Positions 3,619 through 58,992 of a stretch of DNA of 64,000 nt are shown one piece after another. The notes beneath the pieces are model-generated. The model searched no databases, had not been told where the DNA came from, and saw only the letters and a program-made list of their open reading frames with translations. A program made the translations under genes and the position numbers. Source of the stretch: Candidatus Omnitrophota bacterium (lineage in GTDB: Bacteria; Omnitrophota; Gorgyraeia; Aquiviventales; Aquiviventaceae); NCBI GenBank assembly GCA_016209275.1, contig JACQWM010000004.1:42243-106242 (forward strand). Direction: 5' to 3'. The stretch's first letter is position 1, and each line of letters begins with the position of its first letter.

Positions 3619-3621
3619 ACG

Positions 3622-11870: not shown

Positions 11871-11871
11871 C

Positions 11872-14604: not shown

Positions 14605-15661
14605 GAGAGAACCAGCCGAGCTGATGGCGGGCATCGAGCAGGATCTGGCCGCCTACCGGGAGTGCGGATTGCTTGAGCATCGCGGGGATCGCCTGACATC
14701 GGAATGGGCGCTGCAGGTGAAAGAGCAGCCCGGGCGGTTCATCCGACCTGATGGCACGATCGACACGGAGCGGCTGCGCAATTTCAGGAAGCTGCTGATC
14801 TTTCTGAAAGATGTCCCGTCCTTCTCGCTGCAGTGGTGGAACCGCTGGACGCTTCTCGGCGGAGGACGGCGAGGGTCGGTGAAGATGCTTCGTGAAAATC
14901 TCGCCCTCCTCAAAACCCATGGCTACGACGCCTTGCTGAAAAAACATCCGTGCTCGATGGTGGGCCACCCGTACGTCTTTCGCACCGACGGTTACCAGTT
15001 CACGTATCGCTGGTTCAGGCACATTTACTTTCTTGGCCTGCTGCAACGGGTCTTAGGCAGCCGTCTCAGCGGGGAGCTCACCCCGCCCCATGGGGCGGGG
15101 TTCACCGAACTTTCCATCGGCGGCGGCTATGGCGTGTTTTCCTATGTGCTCAAGCGCGAATATCCGGCGGCCCGGTCAATCCTTGTGGATTTTCCAGAGC
15201 AGCTGCTCTTGGCTCGCTACTTTCTCGGACGAAGTTTTCCTCAGGCTCGGATCGCCGGCATGGCGCAGATCGCTCAGTTGCCGTCCATCTCGCGCGAGTT
15301 CATCCAGGCGCATGATTTTGTGCTCGTCCCATGCCAGTATTACCCTCGGCTTGAGGGCGGGAGTGTGGATCTCGTCACCAACTTTATTTCCTTCGGTGAA
15401 ATGACGCCTGAGTGGTTCAGGTTCTATGTGGAGGCCCCGCCGTTTACATCGGCGAAGTGGTTCTTTACCGTCAACCGCGTGCAATCGCGTCCGGTGTACG
15501 ACAGCGACCTGACGATCCTTGACTATCCGATTTGGGATGCGGCGAAACGGCTGCACTTCGGGCTGTGTCCGGCCCTCTCCTCATATTTTACCCAGCGGGG
15601 AGTGTTCTTGATGGAGCGGACGGCGCACGCGCCGTTTTTCGAATACCTCGGCGAGAAGTAA
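14597..15661 (+). CDS. Hypothetical protein, possible sugar O-methyltransferase-like (GxGxG motif)
   Basis: ELSIGGGYGVFSYVL...ILVDFPEQ resembles a class I MTase motif I and acidic motif II. Otherwise unrecognised. Confidence 0.3.
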   Translation: MIEREPAELMAGIEQDLAAYRECGLLEHRGDRLTSEWALQVKEQPGRFIRPDGTIDTERLRNFRKLLIFLKDVPSFSLQWWNRWTLLGGGRRGSVKMLRENLALLKTHGYDALLKKHPCSMVGHPYVFRTDGYQFTYRWFRHIYFLGLLQRVLGSRLSGELTPPHGAGFTELSIGGGYGVFSYVLKREYPAARSILVDFPEQLLLARYFLGRSFPQARIAGMAQIAQLPSISREFIQAHDFVLVPCQYYPRLEGGSVDLVTNFISFGEMTPEWFRFYVEAPPFTSAKWFFTVNRVQSRPVYDSDLTILDYPIWDAAKRLHFGLCPALSSYFTQRGVFLMERTAHAPFFEYLGEK

Positions 15662-15666
15662 GCGAA

Positions 15667-16668
15667 ATGAAAATCGCAGTCTTGGGCACCGGCAGCATCG
15701 GCCTGCGCCATCTGGGGCTGTTGCGGACCATCGACGGGGCTCGGCCGATCGCCATTCCCATCAGAGCGTCGCGGCGCAGCGAACTGCGCGCCCTCGGGTA
15801 CGAGACGGCGGAGGATCTGGCGGCCGCCGCAGCGCTGGGGGCGAGCCTGTGCCTTGTGGCGACCGACACCGGCCGCCATGAAACCGACAGCCGTGAAGCG
15901 CTGCAGCGCGGCTTCGACTTGTTGGTGGAAAAACCTGTGGCGACGGATGCCGAGGCGGCCTTGCGCGTGCTGGAACGCGCTCGAGCCTTGCAGCGCCGGG
16001 TCTTCGTCGGCTGCGTGGTGCGATTCTCCGAGTCGCTGAAGACGTTTCGCCAGCGGCTGGCTGATGTGGGCGAGGCGCACGCGGTCCGGATTGAATGCCA
16101 ATCATACCTTCCGTCGTGGAGGCCGGATCGGCCGCACCAGAACTCGTATTCCGCGCGCGCCGAGGAGGGCGGGGTACTGCGCGATTTGATTCACGAGATC
16201 GATTACGCCGGATGGATCTTCGGATGGCCGGTCGCACTCTCCGCTCGGCTGCGGAATACCGGCCGGCTTGGGATTGCGGCCGAGGAGATGGCGGAATTAA
16301 TGTGGGAGACCCCGGCCGGAGCCAGCGTTTCCGTGGCGCTGGATTATCTCACACAGCCGCCGCGGCGGCGGATGCGGGTGAGCGGGTCGCGCGGCACCAT
16401 CGAATGGGATGGGATGGAGCAGACCGTCACCGTGGATTTCCCCGGGGGCTCGCGCACGACCGTTCCTTCATCCCAGACCCGTGATGCGATGATCCGTGAA
16501 GAGTTGCTCGCGTGGCTCAATGCCCGTCACGGTGTCGTGGATGAGCGGCTGGCGACCGCGGAGGAAGGCCTTCGGGCACTCGCCGTCTGTGACGCGGCGC
16601 GCCAGGCCTCGGATGCGCATCGAGAGGCAACTGTGGAGGAGCGATGGCCAGTGCCATTAAGCGCTTAG
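15667..16668 (+). CDS. Gfo/Idh/MocA-family oxidoreductase
   Basis: MKIAVLGTGSIGLRHL...EKP motif pattern. Confidence 0.65.
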   Translation: MKIAVLGTGSIGLRHLGLLRTIDGARPIAIPIRASRRSELRALGYETAEDLAAAAALGASLCLVATDTGRHETDSREALQRGFDLLVEKPVATDAEAALRVLERARALQRRVFVGCVVRFSESLKTFRQRLADVGEAHAVRIECQSYLPSWRPDRPHQNSYSARAEEGGVLRDLIHEIDYAGWIFGWPVALSARLRNTGRLGIAAEEMAELMWETPAGASVSVALDYLTQPPRRRMRVSGSRGTIEWDGMEQTVTVDFPGGSRTTVPSSQTRDAMIREELLAWLNARHGVVDERLATAEEGLRALAVCDAARQASDAHREATVEERWPVPLSA

Positions 16669-17393
16669 CGGTCATCCCGGCGCGAACCGGCTCAAAAGAG
16701 CTGCCGGGGAAAAACGTGCGGCCCTTTGCCGGGGTGCCGTTGATCGCCCACACGATTCTCTTTGCCAAAGGGTGCCCCCAGGTTACGCGGTGCATCGTGT
16801 CAACGGATTCATCGTCAATCGCCGACGTCGCGCGGCAGTTCGGGGCCGAGGTCCCGTTTCTGCGTCCGGAGGCGTTGGCGCAAGATGACACTCCGCTGTG
16901 GCCGGTTCTTCGGCACGCGTTGGCGATGGCGGAAGCCGAGGACGGCCAGCCGTATGACGAATTACTGCTGCTGGATCCGACCTCGCCGGCACGAACGATC
17001 GAGGATGTGACCGGAGCGTTGCGCCGGCTTCATGAGGCTCCGTCGGCCGATGGTGTGGTTAGCGTCTCGCGTCCGGAGTTCAATCCGGTCTGGCACTGCG
17101 TGGTGGAGCAGGACGGATGGATGGCGGACCTGATCCCTGGCGGCGGCCGAATCACCCGCCGGCAAGACGCTCCGGTGGTGTATCGGATTAACGGCGCGCT
17201 CTACATTTGGCGCACGAGATTTCTTCGAGCCGCCCAGCCGTCCTGGCGGACGGGACGCCATGTGATCTATGAGATTCCGGAGTCTCGGGCGATTTCCATC
17301 GACACCTTGGAGGCGTTTGAGCGGGCCGAGCTGCTGGTGAAAAGCGGGATGATTGCCTTCCCGTGGATGCAAGGACAGCATGCCAGCCGCTAA
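16644..17393 (+). CDS. neuA: Acylneuraminate (nonulosonate) cytidylyltransferase, NeuA/LegF-like
   Basis: RLAVIPARTGSKELPGKN N-terminal CMP-transferase signature. ~249 aa. Confidence 0.75.
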   Translation: MASAIKRLAVIPARTGSKELPGKNVRPFAGVPLIAHTILFAKGCPQVTRCIVSTDSSSIADVARQFGAEVPFLRPEALAQDDTPLWPVLRHALAMAEAEDGQPYDELLLLDPTSPARTIEDVTGALRRLHEAPSADGVVSVSRPEFNPVWHCVVEQDGWMADLIPGGGRITRRQDAPVVYRINGALYIWRTRFLRAAQPSWRTGRHVIYEIPESRAISIDTLEAFERAELLVKSGMIAFPWMQGQHASR

Positions 17394-17439
17394 GCGCGCG
17401 AGACGCACGCGACGTCCCATGCGATCTATCGCGGAGTTG

Positions 17440-18222
17440 ATGGATCTTCATGGCCGACGCGCCGTGGTGACGGGTGGGGCCGGGCATGTGGGGCGGGTCA
17501 TCGGCGCAACACTCATCGAGCTAGGTGCGACGGTGACACTGCTGGATCTCGACGCGTCCGCCGTTCGCGCGCGCGCCCGGGAACTCTCGAGATCCGGAAG
17601 CGGCGAAGCGCTCGGGCTGGCGTGCGACTTGACGGATGAGGCCGAGACGCGCGGCACGCTGCGGACCGCGGTCAAGGCGATGGGCGGAGTCGACATTCTG
17701 ATTCACAATGCCGCCTATGTGGGCAACCTGTCTCGGCCTGGCTGGTCGGTGCCGTTTGAGCAGCAAACCGTGGAGGGGTGGGATGCTGCGCTGCGTGTGA
17801 ATTTGACCGCGGCATTTGTGATGGCGCAGGAAACCCACAAGGCGCTGGGTGCCTCAGGCCATGGCAGCATCGTTCTGATCGGCTCCATCTATGGCGTTTC
17901 CGCGCCGGACTTTCGTCTCTATGAGGGGACCGCGATGGCCAACCCGGCGGCGTATGCGGCGTCCAAAGGCGGGCTGCTGCAATTGATGCGGTATTTAGCT
18001 ACGTGGCTCGCCCCCCGGGTGCGGGTCAATGCCATTTCTCCCGGCGGGCTGTTGCGCGGCCAGCCGAGCAGCTTCCAACAGCGCTACGTAGAGCGGACAC
18101 CGCTTGGCCGGATGGGAACCGAGGAGGATGTGAAAGGTGCGGTCGCCTACCTCGCCAGCGATCTTTCGGCATACGTCACAGGACATAATCTGATGGTGGA
18201 TGGAGGATGGACCGCGTGGTGA
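17440..18222 (+). CDS. SDR-family short-chain dehydrogenase/reductase
   Basis: RAVVTGGAGHVGR Rossmann motif and the SDR catalytic YxxxK region (YAASKGG). Alternative in-frame starts at 17380 and 17419. Confidence 0.6.
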   Translation: MDLHGRRAVVTGGAGHVGRVIGATLIELGATVTLLDLDASAVRARARELSRSGSGEALGLACDLTDEAETRGTLRTAVKAMGGVDILIHNAAYVGNLSRPGWSVPFEQQTVEGWDAALRVNLTAAFVMAQETHKALGASGHGSIVLIGSIYGVSAPDFRLYEGTAMANPAAYAASKGGLLQLMRYLATWLAPRVRVNAISPGGLLRGQPSSFQQRYVERTPLGRMGTEEDVKGAVAYLASDLSAYVTGHNLMVDGGWTAW

Positions 18223-19268
18223 TGAACGTCGACATCGCTGGGCATCGCGTGGGTTTGGGACACCGGTGTGTGATCATCGCCGAGGCCGGGGTCAATCACA
18301 ACGGCAGCATCGAGACGGCGCGCCGGTTGGTGGATGCGGCGGTGGATGTCGGCGCTGATGCCGTGAAGTTTCAGGCTTTTTCCGCCCAGCGGCTCGTGGC
18401 CGCCTCTGCGCCGAAGGCGGCGTACCAGGCGCGCACCACCGGCGCAGGCGAGTCGCAGCTGGCGATGCTTACGCGCCTGGAATTATCCGCGCGCGATCAT
18501 CAGGACCTCTTCGCCTACTGCCGGCAGCGAGGGATCATGTATCTGTGCACGCCATTCGATGAGGCGAGTGCGGATTTCTTGGCCGAGCTCGGTGTAGCGG
18601 CATTTAAGTTGCCATCCGGAGAGCTGACCAACCTGCCGTTGCTTGCGCACGTGGCGAGGAAGGGCAGGCCGATACTGGTGTCAACCGGGATGGCCACCCT
18701 CGCCGAGGTCCGCAGCGCGGTGGAGGCCATCCGGCAGGCAGGGAATCCGCCGCTGATTCTGCTGCATGCGGTGAGCAGCTATCCGGCCGATGCGGCCGAT
18801 GCGAATCTCAGGGCCATGCAGACGATGGGCGATGTGTTCGGCGTGCCGGTGGGGTATTCAGATCATACGCTCGGCATCGAAGTGGCGTTGGCGGCGGTCG
18901 CCCTGGGTGCGTGCGTCATTGAAAAGCACGTCACACTGGACCGCACGCTGCCCGGGCCTGACCACCGCGCGTCGCTTGAGCCGCATGAGTTCGCCTCGTT
19001 GGTGCGAGGCATCCGAACGGTGGAAGCCTCACTTGGCCACGGGCGCAAAGAGCCGGCGGCGAGCGAAGCGAACACGGCGGCGGTGGCGCGCAAGAGCCTG
19101 GTGGCGGCGCGGCCGATTGCTCGGGGCAGTGTGGTGACGGCTGATGCCGTGGCGATCAAGCGGCCGGGGACCGGCCTAGCACCCACCGAGCTTTCGCGCA
19201 TCGTGGGAAAAATCGCCGCGGAAGATATTCCGGCGGATGCGCTCTTTACCCTGGAGATGCTGACATGA
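18207..19268 (+). CDS. neuB: N-acetylneuraminate synthase family (NeuB/LegI-like) with C-terminal SAF domain
   Basis: CVIIAEAGVNHNGS...AVKFQAF signature. ~350 aa, consistent with NeuB plus SAF. Start could instead be 18222. Confidence 0.8.
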   Translation: MDRVVMNVDIAGHRVGLGHRCVIIAEAGVNHNGSIETARRLVDAAVDVGADAVKFQAFSAQRLVAASAPKAAYQARTTGAGESQLAMLTRLELSARDHQDLFAYCRQRGIMYLCTPFDEASADFLAELGVAAFKLPSGELTNLPLLAHVARKGRPILVSTGMATLAEVRSAVEAIRQAGNPPLILLHAVSSYPADAADANLRAMQTMGDVFGVPVGYSDHTLGIEVALAAVALGACVIEKHVTLDRTLPGPDHRASLEPHEFASLVRGIRTVEASLGHGRKEPAASEANTAAVARKSLVAARPIARGSVVTADAVAIKRPGTGLAPTELSRIVGKIAAEDIPADALFTLEMLT

Positions 19269-20473
19269 CACCACGGATGATCGGGGTGGTGACGGTCGGC
19301 CGGTCAGATTACGGCATGGTCACGCCCATCCTGAAAGCGATACAGCGCGAACCGTCCTTGCGATTGCATCTGATCGTCTCCGGCGCGCATCTCTCGGCGG
19401 AATTCGGAGCGACCATCAACGACATCGAGCGCGATGGGGTGCCAATCGGCGACCGGGTGGAGATGCTGCGCCATGCCGATACGCCGGAGGGCATCGCCGA
19501 CTCGATCGGCCGAGGGGTCTCGGGATTCGCGCGCTCCTTTGCCGCCACACGGCCTGATGTGCTGCTCATTCTCGGCGACCGGGTGGAGATGTGCGCGGCG
19601 GCACTCGCGGCGCTGCCCATGACCATTCCAGTCGCGCATCTGCACGGAGGCGAGCTCACCGAGGGTGCGATCGATGATGCGTTGCGGCATGCCATGACGA
19701 AACTCAGCCACGTCCATTTTGTGGCCACCGACGCCTACGCCAAGCGCGTCATGCAGCTTGGCGAGGAGCCGTGGCGCGTCACACGCTGCGGCGCGCCCAG
19801 CTTGGATCACATCACAGACATCCCGCGGTTGAACCGGGAAGAGCTGCACGTGCAATTTGGGTTGCGACTGCGCGAGCCCATCCTCTTAGTCACGTGTCAT
19901 CCGGTGACGCTGGAATTCGAGCGGACCGAGTGGCACATCGCGCAGCTGCTGGAGGCACTGGCCGAGTGGACCGGCACCGTCGTCTTCACGGCGCCGAATG
20001 CGGATACGCACGGCCGGCTCATCCGGCGCGCGATTGAGGCGTTTCTCTCGGCCCATCCGCAGCATCAGATGATCGAGCACCTGGGACGCCAGGGATATGT
20101 CAGCGTGATGGCGCAAGCGTGCGCGATGGTTGGCAACTCGTCCAGCGGCCTCATCGAGGCGCCGTCCTTCGAGCTGCCGGTGGTCAACATCGGTTCGCGC
20201 CAGCAGGGACGGATCCGTGCGGCGAACGTGATTGATGTCGGCGAAACACGGCAGGACATTCTTGATGGCATCCGCCAAGCAACCGCTCCGGCCTTCCGAC
20301 AGCGGCTGCGCGGGCTGGTAAACCCGTACGACCAGGGCGGAGCGGCGGCAATGATTGTGCGGCGATTAAAGGAGATGCCGATCGACGCTCGGCTGCTCCG
20401 CAAACGGTTTGTGGATCTTCCCGCAGCTTCTGCGAGTCACCCTGAACCGACCGTGGTGTCGCATGCCGACTGA
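19265..20473 (+). CDS. neuC: UDP/GDP-N-acetylhexosamine 2-epimerase (hydrolysing), NeuC/LegG-like
   Basis: IGVVTVGRSDYG...HLHGGE motifs of hydrolysing 2-epimerases. Confidence 0.8.
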   Translation: MTPRMIGVVTVGRSDYGMVTPILKAIQREPSLRLHLIVSGAHLSAEFGATINDIERDGVPIGDRVEMLRHADTPEGIADSIGRGVSGFARSFAATRPDVLLILGDRVEMCAAALAALPMTIPVAHLHGGELTEGAIDDALRHAMTKLSHVHFVATDAYAKRVMQLGEEPWRVTRCGAPSLDHITDIPRLNREELHVQFGLRLREPILLVTCHPVTLEFERTEWHIAQLLEALAEWTGTVVFTAPNADTHGRLIRRAIEAFLSAHPQHQMIEHLGRQGYVSVMAQACAMVGNSSSGLIEAPSFELPVVNIGSRQQGRIRAANVIDVGETRQDILDGIRQATAPAFRQRLRGLVNPYDQGGAAAMIVRRLKEMPIDARLLRKRFVDLPAASASHPEPTVVSHAD

Positions 20474-21137
20474 TCAGCGATGCTGTCTGGTTCTTGGCGG
20501 CGGGGGGCATGCGCGGGTGGTGATCGACTGTCTGCTGGCGAGCGGCATCGCGAAGCCGCAGGGGATTCTTGATGCGAGTCCGCGGCTATGGGGGACTGAG
20601 GTGCTTGACGTGCCGATTCTCGGCGGGGATGAGATGATCGCTCAGCTCGCGCGCGAAGGTGTAACGCTGTTTATCGTCGGAGTGGGCGCGGTAGGTGACA
20701 ACGGACCGCGGCAGCGGCTCTTTGAGCTTGGGATCTCCCGCGGCCTCACCCCGTTGTCGGTGCGCCATCCGTCTGCCGTGTGCTCATCATCGGCGACGGT
20801 GGGAGCCGGCTCGCTGCTGTGCCCAGGGGCGGTGGTCAACGCGGGTGCGGTGATCGGCGGCAATGTCATTATCAACTCCGGCGCGATTGTGGAGCATGAG
20901 TGCGTGATCGAGGATCATGCGCACGTTGCCAGCGGGGCGGTCCTGGCCAGCGCGGTGCGTGTTGGCCGCGGCGCGCATGTGGGCGCAGGGGCTACGGTGC
21001 GCCAAGGCCTCTCCATTGGTGAAGCGGCGATCGTCGGTGCCGGGGCGGTTGTCGTCAAGCCGGTCGAGGCCGGGACGGTGGTTGTAGGGGTGCCGGCGCG
21101 CGAGCTCAAGCGCTTGTCGACGGCAGGAACCGGATGA
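20463..21137 (+). CDS. NeuD/PglD-family hexapeptide-repeat sugar N-acetyltransferase
   Basis: N-terminal Rossmann-like CLVLGGGGHARVV, followed by left-handed beta-helix hexapeptide repeats. Confidence 0.75.
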   Translation: MPTDQRCCLVLGGGGHARVVIDCLLASGIAKPQGILDASPRLWGTEVLDVPILGGDEMIAQLAREGVTLFIVGVGAVGDNGPRQRLFELGISRGLTPLSVRHPSAVCSSSATVGAGSLLCPGAVVNAGAVIGGNVIINSGAIVEHECVIEDHAHVASGAVLASAVRVGRGAHVGAGATVRQGLSIGEAAIVGAGAVVVKPVEAGTVVVGVPARELKRLSTAGTG

Positions 21138-22096
21138 GCATCGCGAACAGAAGACGTATTGGATCGAACGGAAACGAGATCCGTATGGCAGCGCTGCCCT
21201 CTGTGAGCGGCGCAGGAGGGTGGGAATCTGATGGTCTTTGCGAAGTGGAATCCTTCTATGATCTGATGTCCGAGGGCGCTGATTTCTCCTACTATCAGGA
21301 CCTCGGGCCAGGCAAATACGAAGAGCATTATTACAATCCGGATGGGGTCATCCTGTTTCCCGCGGCGCGGCAGCTGTATTGGTTTGGCGTGTCGCATCTC
21401 TCGGTTGGCACGCTTCGCCCTGGAGTTCGGGGCTATGTGCCGTGGAATCTCTGGAGAAAGAAATTCGTGTTTGCGTACCAGGGCAATCGCGTGAGCATCT
21501 TGCCGTACTCGTTCTGGCACGTGCCGGCGGGGGCGGCCGATCCCATGCGTGGGCAGTCCGCGGTGAAAGTCGCATACGCCGTCGGCCAGCGATTCCAACG
21601 GCTGTGCGATGTGCGCCCCGAAGAAGGAATGCCAGCGCAGGCGCTGGAGGCGATCGCCTCAGCGTGGAAGACGCATCGACGGCTCAAGATCGGGGTGACG
21701 ATCGGCCACAGCGTGGCGATGTTTGACGTCCGAACCGCATTTTTTGAGCGCGGGATTTTTTCGTTTTCTTCGAAGATCATCGTGATTCCTGATGCGGATG
21801 CCACGGCATTTTCCTGGGATCGCGCGTCGCTCGGCCACGTGTGCGTGTCAACGGACGGCACCTGCTCGATGGTGCAGGAAAAGCGCCCGCGGGCGGCCTG
21901 GAAGCATCAGCTCGCGGCGCTCTGTCCCGGGGTGATCGGCGCCCATCAGCTCCTTGAGCATTCTCCGCGGCCCGTTCAAGAATGGTGCCGCGCGATGCTG
22001 CGCGGTCCATCGCAAATGCTGCTGCGGTGGCTCGCGCCCTACGAGGTCAAGCAGCTCCGGTGCCCGTTTACGGTGTTTGTGAGCGAAAATACATGA
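21134..22096 (+). CDS. Hypothetical protein
   Basis: 320-aa ORF in operon context (ATGA coupling on both sides). No recognisable motif. Confidence 0.35.
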   Translation: MSIANRRRIGSNGNEIRMAALPSVSGAGGWESDGLCEVESFYDLMSEGADFSYYQDLGPGKYEEHYYNPDGVILFPAARQLYWFGVSHLSVGTLRPGVRGYVPWNLWRKKFVFAYQGNRVSILPYSFWHVPAGAADPMRGQSAVKVAYAVGQRFQRLCDVRPEEGMPAQALEAIASAWKTHRRLKIGVTIGHSVAMFDVRTAFFERGIFSFSSKIIVIPDADATAFSWDRASLGHVCVSTDGTCSMVQEKRPRAAWKHQLAALCPGVIGAHQLLEHSPRPVQEWCRAMLRGPSQMLLRWLAPYEVKQLRCPFTVFVSENT

Positions 22097-23655
22097 GCGT
22101 GCGGATCATCCCGCGTCTTGACATCAAAGGCCCCAACCTGGTGAAGGGCATTCACCTGGAGGGGCTGCGGGTGTTGGGACGGCCTGAACCGTTCGCGCGT
22201 TGCTACGCTGAGCACGGCGCGGATGAATTGTTGTTCATGGATGCGGTGGCCAGCTTGTATCAGCGTAACAGCCTGCTCGATTTGATTTCGCGGACCTCGC
22301 GGGAAATCTTCATCCCGCTGGCCGTCGGCGGCGGGCTGCGTTCGATTGACGATATCCGGATGGTCTTGCGCGCAGGCGCTGATAAAGTGTCGCTGAACAC
22401 GGCGGCCATCCAGAGGCCTGAGCTGATCCGTGAAGCCGCCCAGCGCTTCGGCAGCTCAACCATCGTCGTATCGATCGAGGCGATCAAGAGACCTGATGGG
22501 TCCTATGAGGCGTACACCGACAATGGACGGGAGCGCAGCGGGGTGGATGCGATGGCGTGGGCGCGCCGTGCGGCCGAGCTCGGAGCCGGGGAGCTGCTGG
22601 TGACCTCGATCGACCGCGAAGGCACGGGCAAAGGATTCGATGTGGAGTTGACGCGCGCCATCGCAGAATCGGCGCCGATTCCGGTGATTGCGTGCGGAGG
22701 AGCTGGCCAACTCGCCCATGTGGAGGAGGTTGTCGCGGCCGGGCGCGCGGATGCGGTCTGCCTGGCGTCGATGCTGCATTATGCCGATGGCGCTCCCCGA
22801 ACCGCGGAACATGTGGCGGCCCAGGAAGGCAACACCGAGTATCTGAAGAGCCGCCGAGGATTTTCCAAGGTGCGCGGAGCCACACTCGGGGAGATCAAAT
22901 CATTTCTTGCATCGAAACACGTCGAGTGCCGACCAGGGGACGGTGCTCTTTTTCGATGCTCGAAAAAGAGCACCGTCCCCGCACCGACCGTCGCGATCAT
23001 CGACTATGAGATGGGCAATCTCTTCAGCGTCAAACACGCCTGCGAGCATGCCGGCATGCAGGCGATCATCACCTCCTCGCGCGAGGCGATCCAGTCGGCC
23101 GATGCGATCATCCTGCCGGGTGTTGGAGCCTTCGGCGATGCGATGGCGGCCTTAAGACGGCTGGATCTGGTCAGCCTGCTGAAGGAATGCGCAGCGTCAG
23201 GCAAACCGTTGATGGGAATCTGTCTTGGCATGCAACTGCTGATGACGGAAAGCGAGGAGTTCGGGCGCCACCAAGGGCTGGGCATCATTGAGGGCGATGT
23301 GGTGCGACTCAGTCCAGGGGCTTATGACGGGCGGGCCATGAAAGTGCCCCAGGTGGGATGGAATCGGATTACGCCAACGGCCCCGGAAGCATGGCGCAAC
23401 AGCCTCTTGGCGGACACGCCGCCCGGGGCGTGGACGTATTTCGTCCATTCGTTTTATGCCCGTCCAGCCGATCCTGAGGTGATGGTGTCCACGACGCGCT
23501 ACGGTGATGCGACGTTTTGCTCAAGTCTTGCGCGGCGCAACGTGTTTGCCTGCCAATTCCATCCTGAGCGCAGCGGGCCGGACGGGCTGCGCATCTACCG
23601 CCAGTTCGCCGCGATGGCGCAACGCACGATGAAGGAGGTGGCTCCACATGCCTGA
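22093..23655 (+). CDS. Fused imidazole-glycerol-phosphate-synthase-like cyclase (HisF/WbuZ-like) and glutamine amidotransferase (HisH/WbuY-like)
   Basis: N-terminal half: IIPRLDIKGPNLVKG...AVGGG (HisF TIM barrel). C-terminal half: VAIIDYEMGNLFSV...CLGMQLL...FHPE (class I GATase triad). Confidence 0.8.
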   Translation: MSVRIIPRLDIKGPNLVKGIHLEGLRVLGRPEPFARCYAEHGADELLFMDAVASLYQRNSLLDLISRTSREIFIPLAVGGGLRSIDDIRMVLRAGADKVSLNTAAIQRPELIREAAQRFGSSTIVVSIEAIKRPDGSYEAYTDNGRERSGVDAMAWARRAAELGAGELLVTSIDREGTGKGFDVELTRAIAESAPIPVIACGGAGQLAHVEEVVAAGRADAVCLASMLHYADGAPRTAEHVAAQEGNTEYLKSRRGFSKVRGATLGEIKSFLASKHVECRPGDGALFRCSKKSTVPAPTVAIIDYEMGNLFSVKHACEHAGMQAIITSSREAIQSADAIILPGVGAFGDAMAALRRLDLVSLLKECAASGKPLMGICLGMQLLMTESEEFGRHQGLGIIEGDVVRLSPGAYDGRAMKVPQVGWNRITPTAPEAWRNSLLADTPPGAWTYFVHSFYARPADPEVMVSTTRYGDATFCSSLARRNVFACQFHPERSGPDGLRIYRQFAAMAQRTMKEVAPHA

Positions 23656-24877
23656 GGTGACGGCGTCCTTATCCGAAGGGCTCGAAGCCAAATACGGATT
23701 GCCCAGGGAGGTGGCGTTTTGCCGCCGCTGCGTGATGTCGAACCAGCGTCCGGCCTCCTCGGTGGAGTTCAAGCACGGGCTGGATCACCAGCATCGCACC
23801 TTGCATTTCGACGCGGATGGGGTGTGCGATGCATGCCGAGTGGCCGAGCACAAAGAGCAGATCAACTGGACGGCGCGCGAGACCGAGCTGCTGGCCCTCT
23901 TAGAGCAGCACCGGCGCAGCGACGGCGGCTACGACTGCATCGTGCCGGGCAGCGGCGGCAAGGACAGCGCGTACGCCGCGCATGTGCTGAAGTACAAGTA
24001 CGGCATGCATCCGCTGACCGTGACCTGGCCGCCGATCCTCTACACCGACATCGGCTGGAAAAATTTCCGCAACTGGGTTGAAGTCGGCGGATTCGATAAT
24101 GTGACCTTCAAACAGAATGGCCGCGCCCACCAGCTCTTGACGCGCTTGGCCATTGAGCACTTGCTCCACCCCTTTCAGACCTTCATCCTCGGGCAAAAGA
24201 ACCTCGCCCCAAAGATGGCGCTGCACTTCAACGTGCCCTTGATTTTTTTCGGCGAGAACGAGGCCGAGTACGGCAACCCGATCGCGGATAACGCCCAGTC
24301 GCTGCGCGATAAGTCGTACTTCGCGATGCAGCACCTCGGCGAGATCCGCCTCGGAGGGCTGTCGGTCGATGAGCTGATCGAGCGGCACGGGCTGGCACTC
24401 AATGAGCTGATGGCGTACCTGCCGGCGGATGCGGCGGCGTTGGCGCGCTCGAACATCGAAGTGCGCTACCTCGGCTACTACCTGAAGTGGACGCCGCAGG
24501 AGAGCTACTACTATGCGGTGGAGCACACCGGGTTTGAAGCCAACCCCGTCCGCACCGAGGGGACGTATAGCAAGTACAACAGCTTGGATGATAAAATCGA
24601 CGGCTTCCACTACTACACGACGTACATCAAGTTCGGCATCGGGCGTGCCACGTACGATGCCTCACAGGAGATTCGCAACAAGCATTTGACCCGCGAGGAA
24701 GGGGTGGGACTCGTGCGCCGTTTCGACGGGGAGTTTCCTGAGAAATATTTCCGCGAGGTCATGGAGTATCTTGGCATGAAGCCTGAGCGATTCATGGAGT
24801 TGTGCGATCAGTTCCGCTCGCCCCATTTGTGGAAACAGGAGGGCGGGCAGTGGAAGCTTCGGCACCAGGTGGCTTGA
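23648..24877 (+). CDS. N-acetyl sugar amidotransferase (WbuX/PseA-like PP-loop ATPase)
   Basis: PP-loop GSGGKDS motif. A CRRC N-terminal Zn-ribbon-like motif. ~409 aa, adjacent to the HisH/HisF homologues. Confidence 0.75.
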   Translation: MPEVTASLSEGLEAKYGLPREVAFCRRCVMSNQRPASSVEFKHGLDHQHRTLHFDADGVCDACRVAEHKEQINWTARETELLALLEQHRRSDGGYDCIVPGSGGKDSAYAAHVLKYKYGMHPLTVTWPPILYTDIGWKNFRNWVEVGGFDNVTFKQNGRAHQLLTRLAIEHLLHPFQTFILGQKNLAPKMALHFNVPLIFFGENEAEYGNPIADNAQSLRDKSYFAMQHLGEIRLGGLSVDELIERHGLALNELMAYLPADAAALARSNIEVRYLGYYLKWTPQESYYYAVEHTGFEANPVRTEGTYSKYNSLDDKIDGFHYYTTYIKFGIGRATYDASQEIRNKHLTREEGVGLVRRFDGEFPEKYFREVMEYLGMKPERFMELCDQFRSPHLWKQEGGQWKLRHQVA

Positions 24878-24890
24878 GGGAGGAGAGCGC

Positions 24891-25979
24891 ATGGACCACG
24901 ATGTGAGCGCGCTATGCGTCGACCGCCATCGCGCCTTCGGCGAGGCGATCGCGCAGATGGACCGCAATCGCCGGGGGATTGTCCTGGTGGTGGATGAGCA
25001 TGAGCAGCTGGTGGGCACGATCACCGACGGTGATGTGCGTCGGGCGATCCTGAGCCGGATTGACCTTCGCGAGCCGGTGACAGCGCTGTTGGAGACAAAA
25101 TCCAGGACGCCGTATGCCCGGCCGATTACCGCGCCCATCGGGCAAGATCCAGCGACCTACCTGGAGCTCCTCACCCAGCACCGGATTTTGCACCTGCCGC
25201 TGCTCGATGCCCGCCAGCGGGTGGCCGGGCTCGCGACGATGGAGCAGTTTCTCCAGCACCAGCCGCTGGCGCTTCACGCCATCGTCATGGCCGGAGGGCA
25301 GGGCAGCCGGTTGACGCCGCTGACTGAGGATCTGCCGAAGCCGATGCTGCCGGTGGGCGACCGGCCGCTGATGGAAATCGTCATCCAGCAATTGCGCGCG
25401 GCGGGTATCACGCGCGTCAAAGTGTCCACCCATCATAAACCGGAAAAGATCGAGGAGCATTTCGGCGATGGGCAGGCCTTCGGGGTGCGCCTGTCGTATG
25501 TGGCCGAGGACCGGCCGTTGGGCACCGCCGGAGCGTTGGGGCTGGTGGAGGTGCCTGACGAAACCACCCTGGTGATCAACGGCGACATTCTCACGCAAGT
25601 CGATTTCCGGGCGATGTTGGCGTATCACCGCGAGCACCAAGCGGATTTGACCGTGGCCGTCCGCCATTACGATGTTGAAGTGCCGTATGGCGTGGTGGAG
25701 TGCGAAGGGGCCATGGTCCGCCGGCTGACCGAGAAGCCGGTCAGCCGCCTGTTCGTCAATGCCGGGATTTATCTGCTGGAACCGTCGGTCTATCGCTTCA
25801 TTCCGAATGGCGAGCGGTTTGACATGACGGATCTGATCCAGCGGCTGCTGGACCACCAGCGGCCGGTGGCCAGTTTTCCGATCCGGGAATATTGGCTGGA
25901 CATCGGCCAGCATGCGGATTATCAGTTGGCGCAGGAGCATGCCAAAACGCTGAATCTGGCAAAGGAGGCTGCCGAATGA
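24891..25979 (+). CDS. CBS-domain-containing sugar-phosphate nucleotidyltransferase (PtmE-like)
   Basis: N-terminal CBS pair (VGTITDGDVRRAI...), then the NTP-transferase motif MAGGQGSRLTPLT...KPML. Confidence 0.7.
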   Translation: MDHDVSALCVDRHRAFGEAIAQMDRNRRGIVLVVDEHEQLVGTITDGDVRRAILSRIDLREPVTALLETKSRTPYARPITAPIGQDPATYLELLTQHRILHLPLLDARQRVAGLATMEQFLQHQPLALHAIVMAGGQGSRLTPLTEDLPKPMLPVGDRPLMEIVIQQLRAAGITRVKVSTHHKPEKIEEHFGDGQAFGVRLSYVAEDRPLGTAGALGLVEVPDETTLVINGDILTQVDFRAMLAYHREHQADLTVAVRHYDVEVPYGVVECEGAMVRRLTEKPVSRLFVNAGIYLLEPSVYRFIPNGERFDMTDLIQRLLDHQRPVASFPIREYWLDIGQHADYQLAQEHAKTLNLAKEAAE

Positions 25980-26959
25980 GCTGGCATGGCAAACGGGTCT
26001 TGGTGACCGGAGCCGGAGGGTTTATCGGCAGCCATCTGGCCGAGAAGCTGACGGCCGCTGGGGCCAAGACGCGCGCCCTGGTGCATTACCGCAGCGACGG
26101 CTCCTGGGGCTGGCTGGACCGTTCGCCGATGAAGGAACAGATCGAGATCGTCGCCGGAGACGTGCGGGATGCCGAGAGTGTGCAGCAGGCCATGCAGGGC
26201 ATCGATATCGCGTTTCACCTGGCCGCGCTGATCGGCATTCCGTATTCGTACCACGCGCCGAGCTCCTACATCCATACCAATGTCGAGGGCACGCTGCATG
26301 TGCTGCAAGCGGCGCGCACGCATGGCATCGAACGCGTCGTCCATACGTCCACGAGCGAAGTGTATGGGACGGCGCGGTACGTGCCGATTGATGAAGCCCA
26401 TCCGCTGCACGCCCAGTCTCCCTATGCGGCCAGCAAAATCGGGGCGGATGCCTTGGCGGAATCGTTCGCTCATGCGTTTGGATTACCGGTCGTCATCGTG
26501 CGGCCCTTCAACACCTTCGGGCCTCGGCAATCCGCTCGGGCGGTCATCCCGACGATCATGACGCAATGCCTGACGGATGGCGTGATTCGCTTAGGCCATC
26601 TGCACCCCACGCGAGATCTGAATTATGTCGACAACACAGTCGAGGGGTATCTGCGGGCGGCGGAGGCTCCTGCGGCCATCGGGCGCACGATCAATCTCGG
26701 CTCCGGCCGGGAAATCAGCATCGGGGATCTGGCGGCAGTGATTGCCGGTCTGGCCGATCGGCCGATCCGGATCGAGGAAGACGAGTCCCGTCTTCGTCCG
26801 CCGCAGAGCGAGGTCGACCGGTTGCTGGCCAAGAATGCGTTGGCCCGCGAAGTACTCGGCTGGGAGCCGTCGATCACGCTTGAGGAGGGGTTGCGAATCA
26901 CCATGGCATGGATGCGAGAACACCTTGATGGATACCGCGCAGGCCTCTACGCCATCTAA
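25976..26959 (+). CDS. NAD-dependent NDP-sugar 4,6-dehydratase/epimerase (LegB-like)
   Basis: VLVTGAGGFIGSHL Rossmann motif and the SYxxxK region (YAASK). ATGA coupling. Confidence 0.7.
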   Translation: MSWHGKRVLVTGAGGFIGSHLAEKLTAAGAKTRALVHYRSDGSWGWLDRSPMKEQIEIVAGDVRDAESVQQAMQGIDIAFHLAALIGIPYSYHAPSSYIHTNVEGTLHVLQAARTHGIERVVHTSTSEVYGTARYVPIDEAHPLHAQSPYAASKIGADALAESFAHAFGLPVVIVRPFNTFGPRQSARAVIPTIMTQCLTDGVIRLGHLHPTRDLNYVDNTVEGYLRAAEAPAAIGRTINLGSGREISIGDLAAVIAGLADRPIRIEEDESRLRPPQSEVDRLLAKNALAREVLGWEPSITLEEGLRITMAWMREHLDGYRAGLYAI

Positions 26960-28133
26960 CCGCCAGGCATCCCAGGCATCGGTGCCGTTGAGCGCGCCGC
27001 TCTTCCAGGGGCGGGAATGGGAGTATCTCAAGACCTGCCTGGACAGCGGGTGGGTCTCCTCGGCCGGCCCGTTTGTGGAGCGGTTTGAGCGCGAGGTGGC
27101 GGCGTATGTAGGAAGCCCTGAGGCGGTGGCCGTCGTCAACGGGACCGCGGGGTTGCATGTGGCTCTGCGCATGGTCGGCGTTGAGCCGGAGGATGAAGTG
27201 CTGGTTTCCGATGTGACGTTTATTGCGCCGGCGAATGCGATCCGGTATTGCCAGGCCCACCCGGTGTTCATTGATGCCGAGGCCGACACGTGGCAGATGG
27301 ATGTGGAGAAGGCGGAGCGGTTTTTGCGCACGGCATGCCAGCGCCGTCGGAAGGCGTGCTACAACCAGCGTACCGGCCGGCGCGTGCGCGCTATCGTGCC
27401 GGTGCACATCCTGGGACTAGCCTGCGAGATGGATCGGCTGATGGCGCTCGCACGCGAGTATCACCTGCAGGTCGTCGAAGATGCGGCCGAAGCGATGGGC
27501 GTGCGGTATCGCGGAACCCATGTCGGCACGTTTGGCGATGCCGGAGTGTTAAGTTTCAACGGCAACAAAATCATCACTGCCGGAGGCGGCGGCATGGTCC
27601 TCACACGCAGTCGGCGCCATGCGGCCGCTGCTCGGTATCTGACCACGCAGGCCAAAGATGATGCGCTGGAGTATGTGCATCACCACATCGGATACAATTA
27701 CCGGCTGCCGAATATCCAGGCGGCGCTTGGGCTGGCGCAACTGGAGCAGCTGGATGGGTTCATCGCGAAAAAGCGCGCCATCGCCGCGGTGTATGCCGAG
27801 GCGCTGGGGACGATCCATGGCCTGACCTTGATGCCGGCACCGCCGCACACGGAGCCGACCTATTGGCTCTACACCGTGCTGCTCGCACCCGGGACCACGA
27901 TTGCGCGGCGCCAGGCGGTCATCCGAGCGCTGCGCGCCGCCGGGATCGAGGCCCGGCCGTTGTGGCATCCGCTGCACGCCTTGCGGCCCTACCGGCGGTG
28001 CCAGCGGGTGGCGATCGAATACGCGCCTCGGTTATACGCGCGGGCGGTGAGCCTGCCATCCGGGGTGGGCTTGGGCGGCGAGACGCTCGCTGAGTGCGTG
28101 GCCACCGTCAGAGACACCTTGTTAGCCTCATGA
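26928..28133 (+). CDS. DegT-family PLP-dependent sugar aminotransferase (second copy)
   Basis: Lys-region SFNGNKIITAGGGGM and the typical DegT N-terminus. Start uncertain (overlaps upstream by ~30 nt). Confidence 0.7.
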   Translation: MDTAQASTPSNRQASQASVPLSAPLFQGREWEYLKTCLDSGWVSSAGPFVERFEREVAAYVGSPEAVAVVNGTAGLHVALRMVGVEPEDEVLVSDVTFIAPANAIRYCQAHPVFIDAEADTWQMDVEKAERFLRTACQRRRKACYNQRTGRRVRAIVPVHILGLACEMDRLMALAREYHLQVVEDAAEAMGVRYRGTHVGTFGDAGVLSFNGNKIITAGGGGMVLTRSRRHAAAARYLTTQAKDDALEYVHHHIGYNYRLPNIQAALGLAQLEQLDGFIAKKRAIAAVYAEALGTIHGLTLMPAPPHTEPTYWLYTVLLAPGTTIARRQAVIRALRAAGIEARPLWHPLHALRPYRRCQRVAIEYAPRLYARAVSLPSGVGLGGETLAECVATVRDTLLAS

Positions 28134-30211
28134 CATATTTCGTTGAACATTTGACGTTTCGAACATGGGGTGTTGCCATGCTGCCTCGGCTGCTCATGGC
28201 GCGGCTGCGAGGACAGCGCAGGCCGGTGCGCTGCTACGTGATTGAAGGATCGCGGCTCGCACTGCAGGCGGCTCGCGTCACTGGGCGCCTGATCGGTATC
28301 ACGCCGGAGCGGCTTCAATTCCGCCTCATGGAGATTCGCGATGACGCCGGGCTGTCGATCCGCGTGCGGCTGGCCTATCGAGATTTGGCCGAGGTGCAAG
28401 CCGATGCGATGCGCGAGCCGGATTTCATTGCGTGCCAACAGCGCGCTCAAGGGACGGATCGCTTGCTGCCCTACCTGGCCAAGGGGTTGGCGGCCATTGA
28501 TCGGGCCGAGCGGGGAACCCTCTGGCGAAGGATGCTCACCACTCAGATCTGCGCGCGGCATATTTCCAGCGATGGGCAATCTCACGAGACACCGGTCGTG
28601 GTGATGGAGCGGCAGCCGTGGCATGGCGCGATTGAGCGCTATGCCAATCGGCACGGGCTTCGCGTCATTCCGGTTACCGCCGGCTGGGATCTCAATCGGC
28701 GGCTGCGCCGCCTGGCGCGCCGGCTCATCGATCGCATTCCTCGACCGCGGCCAACACAGGCGGTGACTGCCGGCCGAGTCGCCCCAACAGCTCGGCCGCG
28801 GATCGGGCTAACCTTCTATGGCCAGTTGAACCTGAAGCATCCGGGGCGCTACTCGGATCTGTTTTTCCTGCAGCAGTCCGCGATCCGCGGCAGCGACACG
28901 GTCCTGTTCTTTGAGTTTCCGCAGGATCCGCTTGATATGAAGAAGGCGGCTGAGTTGGCCGAGGAGGGCATTGAGGCGGTGGTGCTCAATCCGCGCGCGG
29001 CCACACTCCCCAAGGCGCGCGTGTGGAGTCCAAGACGGCGTGTGAGCGTGAAACAGCCTCGGGGGCGCAGCTGCGAGTCAGCATGGCTGGCGGAGCAAGC
29101 CGAGTCCTATCACGCGCTGCGGGCGTCGTGGCGCGAACTGTGCGCAGCACACCGCGTGAAGATCTACCTGACCTGGTACAAATATGACGGGGTCCATGCG
29201 GCGATCGCGGATGCGCTGCGGGATCTTGGCGGCATCCTCGCGGTCTATCAGCGGGCGTATGAAGGTCTTGCCTCGGCAGAGACGACGGTGAATGCTGATA
29301 TCATGTTCGGTTTCTCCACGATGGGTGCGGAGGTGGAGCAGCGCTCCGGCTCGACGATCGCCTACCATGTCACGACCGGCTACGTCGGCGATCATCGCGT
29401 TTCCCTGTGGCGCGGAGAGGCGATGAAGATCCGGCAGTCGCTGCAACAGCGCGGGGCGCGGCAGATCCTCGCCTTCGCCGATGAATCGACGAAAGATGAC
29501 GCGCGGTGGGCTCCTGGGCATCCGCAGGCCCAGCGCGACTATGCCTTTCTGCTTGAGCGCGTGCTGAATGAGCCGTGGCTTGGATTGGTGGTCAAGCCGA
29601 AGCGGCCGGTGAAGCTGCGGCCGCGGCTTGGGGCCATCGCCCAGCTCTTAGCGCGCGCCGAGGCCACGGGTCGCTGCATCGTGCTCGAAGGAGGGATTCT
29701 TCACGGCTCGGTTCCGCCGGCCGCCGCGGCACTGGCCGCCGATGTGATGATCCACGGCCACCTCTATGCCGCCACCGCCGGGGTGGAGTCTGCCTTAGCC
29801 GGCGTGCCCACGCTGTTGCTTGATCACGAGGGGTGGGCGGCAAGCCCCTTGTATCGATTAGGCGTGGGGCAGGTGGTGTTTCATGACTGGGAGTCCTTGT
29901 GGAAGCGGTGCCGTGAGCACTGGCATCAGCCGGGTGGTGTGCCGGGATTTGGCGACTGGTCTTCGATGCTTGATGAGCTGGATCCGTTTCGAGACGGCCG
30001 GGCGGCCGAGCGGCTGAGCACGTATCTTCAGTGGCTGCTCGAAGGATTTGCCGCCGGAGCCAGCCGCGAGACGGTCATGGCTGATGCCGCGCAGCGCTAT
30101 GCCTTGCAATGGGGCCACGAGATGGTGACCTCTGTTAACGCGGCCGGCTCAATTCGATATCAGATATCAAACCGCGGTTTGATATCTGATATCGCCTTGC
30201 AGGCGAGATGA
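28130..30211 (+). CDS. Large hypothetical protein (~693 aa), possible GT-B/capsule-synthesis-like transferase
   Basis: No canonical motifs. The C-terminal Rossmann-like segment resembles GT-B or CDP-glycerol transferase folds. ATGA coupling with the upstream DegT. Confidence 0.4.
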   Translation: MTYFVEHLTFRTWGVAMLPRLLMARLRGQRRPVRCYVIEGSRLALQAARVTGRLIGITPERLQFRLMEIRDDAGLSIRVRLAYRDLAEVQADAMREPDFIACQQRAQGTDRLLPYLAKGLAAIDRAERGTLWRRMLTTQICARHISSDGQSHETPVVVMERQPWHGAIERYANRHGLRVIPVTAGWDLNRRLRRLARRLIDRIPRPRPTQAVTAGRVAPTARPRIGLTFYGQLNLKHPGRYSDLFFLQQSAIRGSDTVLFFEFPQDPLDMKKAAELAEEGIEAVVLNPRAATLPKARVWSPRRRVSVKQPRGRSCESAWLAEQAESYHALRASWRELCAAHRVKIYLTWYKYDGVHAAIADALRDLGGILAVYQRAYEGLASAETTVNADIMFGFSTMGAEVEQRSGSTIAYHVTTGYVGDHRVSLWRGEAMKIRQSLQQRGARQILAFADESTKDDARWAPGHPQAQRDYAFLLERVLNEPWLGLVVKPKRPVKLRPRLGAIAQLLARAEATGRCIVLEGGILHGSVPPAAAALAADVMIHGHLYAATAGVESALAGVPTLLLDHEGWAASPLYRLGVGQVVFHDWESLWKRCREHWHQPGGVPGFGDWSSMLDELDPFRDGRAAERLSTYLQWLLEGFAAGASRETVMADAAQRYALQWGHEMVTSVNAAGSIRYQISNRGLISDIALQAR
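30155..30194. repeat. Perfect 40-bp palindrome CGATATCAGATATCAAACCG|CGGTTTGATATCTGATATCG
   Basis: Read directly from the sequence. Lies in the last codons of the 28130-30211 gene, 14 nt before the next ATG. Confidence 0.9.
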
Positions 30212-36076: not shown

Positions 36077-36082
36077 TCGCCC

Positions 36083-37147: not shown

Positions 37148-37154
37148 GAGGGGC

Positions 37155-37316
37155 ATGATGAGCAAAGGACGCGTCCTTCGGGAATTTTGGCAGTTCCTCT
37201 GGCAAGAAAAAAAGTTCTGGCTGATTCCGATTGTGGTGGTGCTGGTCCTCTTCGGCGCGCTGCTGGTCTTTTCGCAAAGCAGCGCGGTGGCCCCCTTTAT
37301 CTACACGCTGTTTTGA
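37155..37316 (+). CDS. SxtK-like small membrane protein (53 aa; not in the supplied ORF track)
   Basis: MMSKGRVLREFWQFLWQEKKFWLIPIVVVLVLFGALLVFSQSSAVAPFIYTLF. Its stop overlaps the carbamoyltransferase ATG (TGATG). Confidence 0.45.
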   Translation: MMSKGRVLREFWQFLWQEKKFWLIPIVVVLVLFGALLVFSQSSAVAPFIYTLF

Positions 37317-58974: not shown

Positions 58975-58992
58975 CGCGGCGATGCGCTGGGC

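Follow-up and report, generated by a model that had tools for sequence, protein, structure and literature searches.

Background

Nonulosonic acids lose their net negative charge when they carry acetamidino groups, which also shape surface antigenicity in Legionella and Campylobacter. Here we describe a gene cluster predicted to produce such a sugar in an uncultured Omnitrophica bacterium. The cluster lies at positions 16644-28133 of a 64,000-nucleotide stretch of contig JACQWM010000004.1 (assembly GCA_016209275.1, positions 42,243 to 106,242), hereafter referred to as the window. It combines a legionaminic acid (Leg) type pathway with a WbuX-family amidotransferase and with a protein in which homologs of HisF and HisH, subunits of imidazole-glycerol-phosphate (IGP) synthase, are fused.

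One of the closest described counterparts is the lipopolysaccharide (LPS) O-antigen locus of Legionella pneumophila, responsible for poly-Leg5Am7Ac. It likewise comprises neuA, neuB and neuC, the WbuX-family gene ORF28 (LpNASAT) and HisF and HisH paralogues (PMC10607449, PMC3766260, PMC3694923). The table for Legionella Sg6 gives the sequence HisF, HisH, LPS amidotransferase gene. The Legionella amidotransferase is ~60% identical to the enzyme from the window and displays the same PP-loop and tetracysteine motifs. Legionella feeds its pathway from UDP-Bac2Ac4Ac (PMC3766260), whereas the window encodes the GDP-type set PtmE, LegB, LegC and LegH. Moreover, HisF and HisH are separate proteins in Legionella and fused in the window. 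The present host is an uncultured Omnitrophica bacterium represented by a metagenome-assembled genome.

The same backbone set, including PtmE and a PtmA-like short-chain dehydrogenase/reductase (SDR), is found in the flagellin glycosylation island of Campylobacter jejuni (LegB/C/H/G/I/F, PtmA/E/F, PtmG, PtmH). In this island, PtmG converts the N-acetyl group to acetimidoyl on Leg, and methyltransferases are located nearby as in the window (bioRxiv 10.64898/2026.04.20.719630). Gene order and fusion state differ between the two. The hisH and hisF paralogues of C. jejuni are separate genes in hisH-hisF order next to pseA. Flagellin glycosylation was considered for the window as well and set aside as unproven, as domain scans of the 64 kb detected neither a flagellin gene nor a Maf/PF01973 domain.

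PP-loop amidotransferase, HisH-like glutaminase and HisF-like barrel functions also occur together in WbuX/WbuY/WbuZ of Escherichia coli O145, in the WbpG system of Pseudomonas aeruginosa O5 and in AglX/Y/Z of Methanococcus maripaludis. Genes of this type have been linked genetically to acetamidino groups (PMC10607449; Jones et al. 2012, as cited in PMC5420450), and HisF/HisH paralogues adjoin WbuX genes in Sphingomonas (PMC11340318). The E. coli, P. aeruginosa and M. maripaludis systems employ separate subunits and act on hexosamine or hexuronic derivatives, in contrast to the fused protein of the window, which belongs to a subgroup with a characteristic C-terminal HisF tail and the gene order hisF-hisH-wbuX.

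Finally, fused IGP synthase of HisH-HisF order, which comprises the eukaryotic HIS7 type and bacterial fusions, likewise unites a glutaminase of class I with a (beta/alpha)8 barrel in one polypeptide with an ammonia tunnel. It has the opposite domain order and serves histidine synthesis. The 33 fusions of this order that were examined carry C9, F23, D130 and D176, where the window has R, L, E and E. We conclude that the system described here is a known Leg5Am7Ac-type pathway in a new lineage, in a recurrent fused variant, and that it is nothing new in kind.

Results and discussion

Organization of the operon

The window has a G+C content of ~62% and nearly all its long open reading frames (ORFs) lie on the plus strand. 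Positions 16644-28133 form one unbroken, tightly coupled run of plus-strand genes, with starts and stops mostly overlapping by 4-16 nt. It is probable that this run is a single operon for a CMP-activated legionaminic-acid-type sugar and its acetamidino conversion.

Gene identities were assigned from Pfam and NCBIfam profile scores, compared with curated cut-offs. All genes named for this region in an earlier note, written from the sequence alone, were recovered at the same coordinates with strong model matches. The start of the fusion gene at 22093 was also correct: its ATG overlaps the upstream stop as ATGA. The list was nevertheless incomplete, since it left out a PtmA-like SDR (17380-18222) and an orphan ORF (21185-22096).

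The run opens with a LegF/NeuA-like cytidylyltransferase, i.e. a CMP-nonulosonate synthetase (16644-17393; PF02348, E=1e-19), whose orthologue in the related locus L001 is 67% identical. It is followed by the PtmA-like SDR (adh_short_C2, E=5e-49), whose ORF opens at 17353 with candidate ATG codons at 17380, 17419 and 17440. Its top NCBIfam model is NF006619/PRK09186 (178.6 bits, cut-off 255), which we take to be the model for 'flagellin modification protein A', PtmA. Next come a LegI/NeuB nonulosonate synthase with C-terminal SAF domain (18207-19268; PF03102, 326 bits; PF08666; TIGR03569, 452.4 against a cut-off of 399.65) and a LegG/NeuC hydrolysing NDP-sugar 2-epimerase (19265-20473), which scores 433.9 on TIGR03568 (cut-off 235.9) and just 71.7 on wecB. 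LegH, an N-acetyltransferase of NeuD/PglD type (20463-21137, ORF open from 20409), contains PglD_N and Hexapep domains and reaches 206.8 on TIGR03570 (cut-off 160.8).

The remaining backbone genes lie downstream of the amidination genes. A PtmE-like protein (24891-25979) combines CBS (PF00571) and sugar-1-phosphate nucleotidyltransferase (PF00483, 164 bits) domains and has a 64% identical orthologue in L001. The LegB-like NDP-GlcNAc 4,6-dehydratase is assigned to 25976-26959. ATG 25976 is preceded by AGGAGG, and the ORF itself opens at 25892. The LegC-family pyridoxal phosphate-dependent aminotransferase (26928-28133; TIGR04181, 479.9 against 420) has an uncertain start between 26928 and 26982, in an ORF open from 26742.

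These scores specify the backbone that the earlier note had left as a 'Leg/Pse-type route'. The Leg part stands, with the LegC, NeuB, NeuC and NeuD models all exceeding their cut-offs. The pseudaminic part was rejected: PseB (67.7 vs 407.75), PseC (253.5 vs 423.5), PseI (289.6 vs 340.25) and PseF (139.2 vs 205.7) models are all far under theirs.

Gene order is conserved in loci L001 and L002, which also carry the fusion, and in L083 and L084, where hisF and hisH are split. The latter two display the order hisF, hisH, WbuX, PtmE, LegB, LegC, followed by a ~700-aa protein of no known function, a GFO-family oxidoreductase, a methyltransferase and a SIS-domain protein.

The WbuX-family amidotransferase

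Embedded in the Leg genes is an N-acetyl sugar amidotransferase of the WbuX/PtmG family (23648-24877, plus strand; 409 aa), a PP-loop ATP pyrophosphatase with a zinc tetracysteine site. Its start overlaps the stop of the fusion gene by 8 nt. The protein aligns to 342 of the 344 positions of TIGR03573, with a score of 356.7 bits against a cut-off of 203.2. It matches chain A of PDB 8WEX, the L. pneumophila N-acetyl sugar amidotransferase LpNASAT, with E=2.6e-167 and 59.7% identity over 382 residues.

The motifs that define the family are a PP-loop SGGxDS and a zinc-binding CxxC...CxxC (PMC10607449). The PP-loop, on which the earlier note had staked its assignment, is present as SGGKDS at aa 102-107 (window 23951-23968), and the tetracysteine site is formed by CRRC at aa 25-28 (C25, C28) and CDAC at aa 60-63 (C60, C63). 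The enzyme is predicted to turn an acetamido into an acetamidino group at the expense of ATP.

Architecture of the HisF-HisH fusion

The protein upstream of the amidotransferase is encoded by a single 520-aa ORF (22093-23655, plus strand) and not by two subunit genes. Its N-terminal part (22093-22788, aa 1-232) is a HisF-like (beta/alpha)8 barrel (PF00977, His_biosynth, 212 bits). Its C-terminal part (22984-23655, aa ~298-520) is a HisH-like class-I glutaminase, with PF00117 (GATase) at aa ~298-507 and a TIGR01855 score of 199.3 against a cut-off of 105.4. The two domains are separated by 65 aa (22789-22983). Alignment with the split HisF and HisH of L083 and L084 reveals that this segment consists of a C-terminal HisF extension with the motif EGNTEYLKSR and of a new connector of ~13 aa. 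The EGNxEYLKSR tail is already present on the split HisF proteins, and HisH starts ~10 residues after it. The fusion joins the adjacent hisF2 and hisH2 end to end, which fixes a 1:1 stoichiometry without new chemistry.

A fusion of the same length, 83% identical and in the same gene order, is found on six independently assembled contigs, including ENA and JGI records. In addition, GenBank tags HY737_00815 and HY737_00845, from a 'Candidatus Omnitrophica bacterium' MAG, correspond to window proteins with 100% identity, and their spacing leaves exactly one tag for the fusion. An assembly artefact is thus very unlikely.

The AlphaFold2 (AF2) model of the fusion has a predicted local distance difference test (pLDDT) of 87 and a predicted template-modelling score (pTM) of 0.89, from which a defined packing of the two domains may be expected. 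In a Foldseek search of the model against PDB only HisF chains were recovered, with TMt ~0.9 for the barrel. Since the Foldseek alignment follows chain order, this search is silent on the canonical HisH:HisF interface, for which the pTM of 0.89 is the sole indicator.

Comparison with the housekeeping histidine enzyme

The HisF domain of the fusion scores 262.3 on the hisF model (TIGR00735), below the cut-off of 294.55, whereas HisF from a true his operon (L048, order hisC-B-H-A-F-IE) scores 395.4. Scores for the glycan-type models are 258.5 against 299.7 for WbuZ (TIGR03572) and 199.1 against 310 for AglZ/HisF2 (NF038364), and the split HisF of the syntenic locus L083 likewise lies under the glycan-type cut-offs (269.1). 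Since the domain stays below the WbuZ and AglZ/HisF2 thresholds, we classify it as an uncurated sister subgroup that would work like them, and not as a member of either curated family.

Six alignment columns separate WbuX-linked HisF proteins from the rest; in Thermotoga maritima numbering these are C9R, F23L, T53V, D130E, G/S144N and D176E. The window fusion carries all six glycan states (R8, L22, V52, E129, N144 and E176 in its own numbering). With respect to the cyclase site, D10 (Asp11) is kept and E129 and E176 replace Asp130 and Asp176. Aspartate occupies both positions 130 and 176 in 36 of the 39 HisF proteins lacking a nearby WbuX.

By contrast with these columns, D11 and the ammonia-gate residues R5, E46, K99 and E167 (T. 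maritima) are invariant in both HisF groups, the gate being represented in the window by R4, E45, K98 and E167. The glutaminase triad of the fusion (Cys377/His490/Glu492) is invariant in 26 fusions. With gate and triad kept and the six columns changed, the barrel appears to have been preserved for the conduction of ammonia, and its cyclase site to have been altered.

Pfam and NCBIfam scans of the 64-kb window found no hisA, hisB, hisC, hisD, hisG or hisI. The view of the earlier note that the fusion is not a histidine-biosynthesis copy is thus borne out by the sub-cut-off hisF score, by the lack of a his operon in the 64 kb and by D130E together with D176E.

Distribution and phylogeny of the fusion

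One genome per species was scanned with an alignment of 26 fusions, and the best 80 loci were analysed together with L001 and L002. Fused HisF-HisH (F-H) genes were found in four of these loci and separate genes in hisF-hisH order in 40; a further 24 have hisH upstream of hisF, with other genes in between, and 14 contain hisF only. All 42 hisF-first loci scored for the position of WbuX carry it on the same strand, and in 38 it is adjacent, on the downstream side in 25 and on the upstream side in 13. WbuX and nonulosonate genes are absent from all 24 hisH-first loci; the one examined is a his operon. Homologs of NeuA, NeuB and NeuC together accompany 25-26 of the 29 WbuX+HisF loci that span at least 15 kb. 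The EGN tail is confined to one arrangement, being present in 16/25 loci of hisF-hisH-WbuX order and in 0/17 loci with WbuX in front.

Fusions are also abundant in public protein data. Among the best 120 clusters at 90% identity, 119 are full-length F-H fusions of 470-580 aa, and the named sources are Desulfovibrio, Pseudodesulfovibrio, Desulfamplus, Brocadiales and Omnitrophota. Representatives at 50% identity were searched exhaustively; of the 150 best, 34 are F-H fusions, 34 are fusions of the reverse order (H-F), 71 are lone HisF and 11 lone HisH proteins. The housekeeping signature is present in all 33 alignable H-F fusions and mostly absent from F-H fusions, so the order of fusion predicts function.

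A neighbour-joining tree built from 249 HisF domains distributes the F-H fusions over ~20 pure clades that lie apart from one another, and parsimony requires 19 changes of state. This number refers to the pruned tree, as the 31 changes counted on the full tree are inflated by truncated proteins. The split L083 is sister to the small fused clade that contains the window protein. The domain order of F-H fusions follows the hisF-hisH gene order of glycan operons. Taken together, the split relatives, the junction alignment and the scattered clades indicate that the fusion is a simple, recurrent loss of a stop codon between adjacent genes.

The fusion had been regarded as atypical, with free genes as the norm. 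At the level of species loci this is correct, fusions being a minority (4 fused vs 40 split), but they are common in public data, as the cluster counts, the 34 representatives at 50% identity and the ~20 clades demonstrate. No paper describing a HisF-HisH fusion in glycan clusters was found in the limited literature set searched. Given the abundance of fusions in public data, we consider this an annotation gap rather than a discovery. Several public F-H fusion entries are annotated as 'imidazole glycerol phosphate synthase subunit HisH/HisF'. Such naming is probably a systematic mis-annotation, because the hisF-first loci found adjoin WbuX genes and Asp130 is missing from most of the F-H fusions.

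Predicted product and mechanism

The most likely product of the operon is CMP-Leg5Am7Ac, with a backbone of 5,7-diamino-3,5,7,9-tetradeoxy-nonulosonic acid. An acetamidino-nonulosonate made by a Leg route, a PP-loop enzyme and a HisF/HisH supplier was also what the earlier note had predicted, and this agrees with every in-silico test available.

By homology to the GDP-linked route of Campylobacter, PtmE and the PtmA-like SDR would supply NDP-GlcNAc. LegB would then dehydrate it at C4/C6, LegC would aminate C4 and LegH would acetylate the new amine. Subsequently, LegG would strip the nucleotide and epimerise C2, LegI would condense the resulting sugar with phosphoenolpyruvate and LegF would add CMP. 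In the amidination branch, glutamine is expected to be hydrolysed in the HisH domain by Cys377/His490/Glu492. The released ammonia would pass through the HisF-like barrel, with intact gate residues and changed cyclase acid/base residues (D130E, D176E), and would be handed over to the WbuX-type enzyme. The latter, with ATP bound at the PP-loop, would activate the acetamido carbonyl with release of AMP and PPi, and ammonia would displace the activated oxygen to give the amidine.

Legionella ORF28 is described as the homologue of C. jejuni PtmG (Cj1324), which converts CMP-Leg5Ac7Ac to CMP-Leg5Am7Ac (PMC3766260). This role of PtmG has been restated in the SugarBase preprint (bioRxiv 10.64898/2026.04.20.719630). 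By analogy with PtmG/ORF28, amidination most likely takes place at N5 and at the stage of the CMP-sugar.

Several points weigh against the assignment of the operon to CMP-Leg5Am7Ac. What the analysis shows is gene content, motifs, family membership, residue signature and genomic association; the identity of the product, its configuration and the nitrogen that is modified are read from homology. Two backbone enzymes remain under equivalog cut-offs. The cytidylyltransferase reaches none, its best NCBIfam model being PseF with the score given above. The LegB-like protein scores 450.4 on TIGR04180 against a cut-off of 475; this model is its best by ~300 bits, the next one reaching 145.6, and the L001 gene at the LegB position shares just 31% identity with it. 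The HisF domain lies under all three curated cut-offs (hisF, WbuZ and AglZ/HisF2), and its subfamily is uncurated. Between legH and the fusion gene lies an orphan ORF to which the predicted pathway assigns no role. Other enzymes of the WbuX family act on hexosamines such as FucNAc and ManNAc3NAcA (PMC10607449), and the 64-kb island encodes routes to several other sugars. The chemistry of the three-part system had been called established, which is overstated: the evidence is genetic and structural, the 2023 structure paper describes the function of the enzyme as little known (PMC10607449), and no in-vitro reconstitution of the reaction was found in the literature searched.

Alternative explanations

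The single HisF-HisH ORF could in principle result from a sequencing or assembly error merging two genes. The split relatives differ from the fusion by a short junction, and a one-base error could merge overlapping genes. Such an error is hardly credible in view of the recurrence of the 83%-identical 520-aa protein on 6 contigs, whose sources include ENA and JGI, the 119 full-length fusions among the best 120 clusters and the in-frame junction, whose connector is conserved between the window and L001. Scarcely more probable is that the fusion is a genuine IGP synthase for histidine, merely sited in a sugar island. Its HisF domain is indeed ~50% identical to HisF proteins of his operons, obtains 262 bits on the hisF model and retains D11, the glycines that bind phosphate and the gate residues; the HisH domain exceeds the cut-off of its model. 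However, the hisF score is short of 294.55 and far from the 395 of the true operon protein, Asp130 and Asp176 are both Glu with all six discriminating columns in the glycan state, and the 33/33 H-F fusions examined have the housekeeping signature while F-H fusions do not. The stop of the fusion gene overlaps the WbuX start codon, and none of hisA/B/C/D/G/I is located in the 64 kb. A haloacid dehalogenase (HAD) domain at 30208-30750 does match the histidinol-phosphatase domain family, but its best full-length match is the heptose phosphatase GmhB.

If the fusion thus serves a glycan, its target might be another amino sugar of the island (such as a hexosamine of FucNAm or ManNAc3NAmA type) and not the nonulosonic acid. 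WbuX and WbpG act on hexosamine derivatives (PMC10607449), and the window encodes several other sugar routes and no fewer than three additional DegT aminotransferases. We nevertheless consider such a target unlikely: the module has legH on one side and ptmE/legB/legC on the other and is joined to its neighbours by overlapping codons, its enzyme shares ~60% identity with that of the Leg5Am7Ac O-antigen of Legionella (PMC3766260), and 25-26 of 29 long WbuX+HisF loci possess NeuA, NeuB and NeuC. More plausible, if still clearly the lesser possibility, is a backbone that is a stereoisomer or modified relative of Leg (4- or 8-epi-Leg, acinetaminic-type, N-methyl-acetimidoyl or with another acyl group), which would be compatible with the amidination of a nonulosonic acid. 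Stereochemistry is not fixed by sequence, the amidine is N-methylated in Legionella and Campylobacter (PMC3766260), and the cluster is accompanied by GFO/IDH/MocA oxidoreductases (15532-16668 and 32319-33356), the PtmA-like SDR, methyltransferases (33347-34330 and 34869-35687) and conserved unknown proteins. The sub-cut-off LegB with its 31% identical L001 counterpart also leaves room for such variation. On the other hand, LegC, NeuB, NeuC and NeuD models are matched above their cut-offs, the gene set equals the characterised Leg set, and no dedicated extra epimerase was identified in 16644-28133. CMP-Leg5Am7Ac is retained as the preferred product.

Neighbouring and accompanying genes

The orphan ORF (HY737_00815; 21185-22096, plus strand) encodes 303 aa, has no Pfam or NCBIfam hit and is translationally coupled to the fusion gene. 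Its homologs are restricted to its own GenBank record and to the L001/L002 orthologue, with 43-45% identity and conserved patches such as YVPWNLWRKKF. A contig look-up with the exact sequence gave no match, and the AF2 single-sequence model (pLDDT 33) is unusable. At the corresponding position, L083 contains ATP-grasp, HAD and BNR proteins.

Immediately downstream of LegC lies a conserved 693-aa protein (HY737_00845; 28130-30211, plus strand), also with no Pfam or NCBIfam hit. It has 78 homologs of ~700 aa, the few named sources being Omnitrophica and Rokubacteria. It directly follows LegC in L001 (16016-18127), L083 (10001-12235) and L084, where two copies occur (3798-5813 and 10001-12076). 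The protein probably belongs to the same module as the LegC operon and may represent an undescribed family of enzymes that transfer or modify nonulosonates.

The adjoining block (30208-34959) is syntenic in L001, L083 and L084. It encodes a GmhB-like HAD protein fused to a 500-aa unknown region (separate genes in L001), a GFO/IDH/MocA oxidoreductase, a Methyltransf_23 protein and a GmhA-like SIS protein. The SIS protein could fulfil a putative PtmF role, and the methyltransferase a putative PtmH-like one.

Further sugar genes are distributed along the window. At 42745-46798 (L083 17681-22235), an HpcH/HpaI-type pyruvate aldolase, two SDRs, a KdsB-like cytidylyltransferase (NF003952, 208 vs 193) and a D-2-hydroxyacid dehydrogenase are conserved together. 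They may constitute a second route to a CMP-activated 3-deoxy-ulosonic acid, using neither NeuB nor KdsA. A third sugar module (56858-62620) consists of a DegT aminotransferase, an epimerase/dehydratase, a GT2 protein, a 300-aa NeuB-like protein lacking SAF (266.8 vs 399.65) and a 699-aa radical SAM protein. The genes at 18-6892 encode a HAD phosphatase, two SDR epimerase/dehydratases, an RmlC-like epimerase, a GHMP kinase, a sugar C-methyltransferase and a radical SAM/SPASM protein, a set that looks like a route to a modified (deoxy)heptose or C-methyl sugar. O-carbamoylation and carboxyl amidation of other island sugars are suggested by a carbamoyltransferase encoded with a small SxtJ-like membrane protein (35684-39148) and by an AsnB-type glutamine amidotransferase (53611-55539). 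Domain scans of the 64 kb detected no Wzx, Wzy or ABC transporter, and the sole polytopic membrane protein is an 811-aa protein (51171-53606) with 8 hydrophobic segments and TPR repeats.

Conclusions

The locus extends the Leg5Am7Ac-type operon to Omnitrophica. Two practical rules emerge from the comparison of HisF proteins. A paralogue that supplies ammonia for glycan synthesis can be recognised by HisF-HisH order or fusion combined with the R9/L23/V53/E130/N144/E176 signature, and true histidine biosynthesis by the order or fusion HisH-HisF.

Acetamidino chemistry is known mainly from genetics and from one apo crystal structure, and the pair of fused HisF-HisH and WbuX would represent a convenient minimal system for biochemical reconstitution. 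A bolder and, in our view, rather doubtful proposal is that the fusion and its split relatives form a third, uncurated glycan-type HisF subfamily, characterised by Glu130/176, the EGN tail and hisF-hisH-WbuX order. Its barrel and tail would dock on WbuX as a closed glutamine-to-amidine channel, and the 693-aa protein would be a new nonulosonate transferase or modifying enzyme. If this is true, the two-protein version would be the simplest system for the first reconstitution of acetamidino formation.

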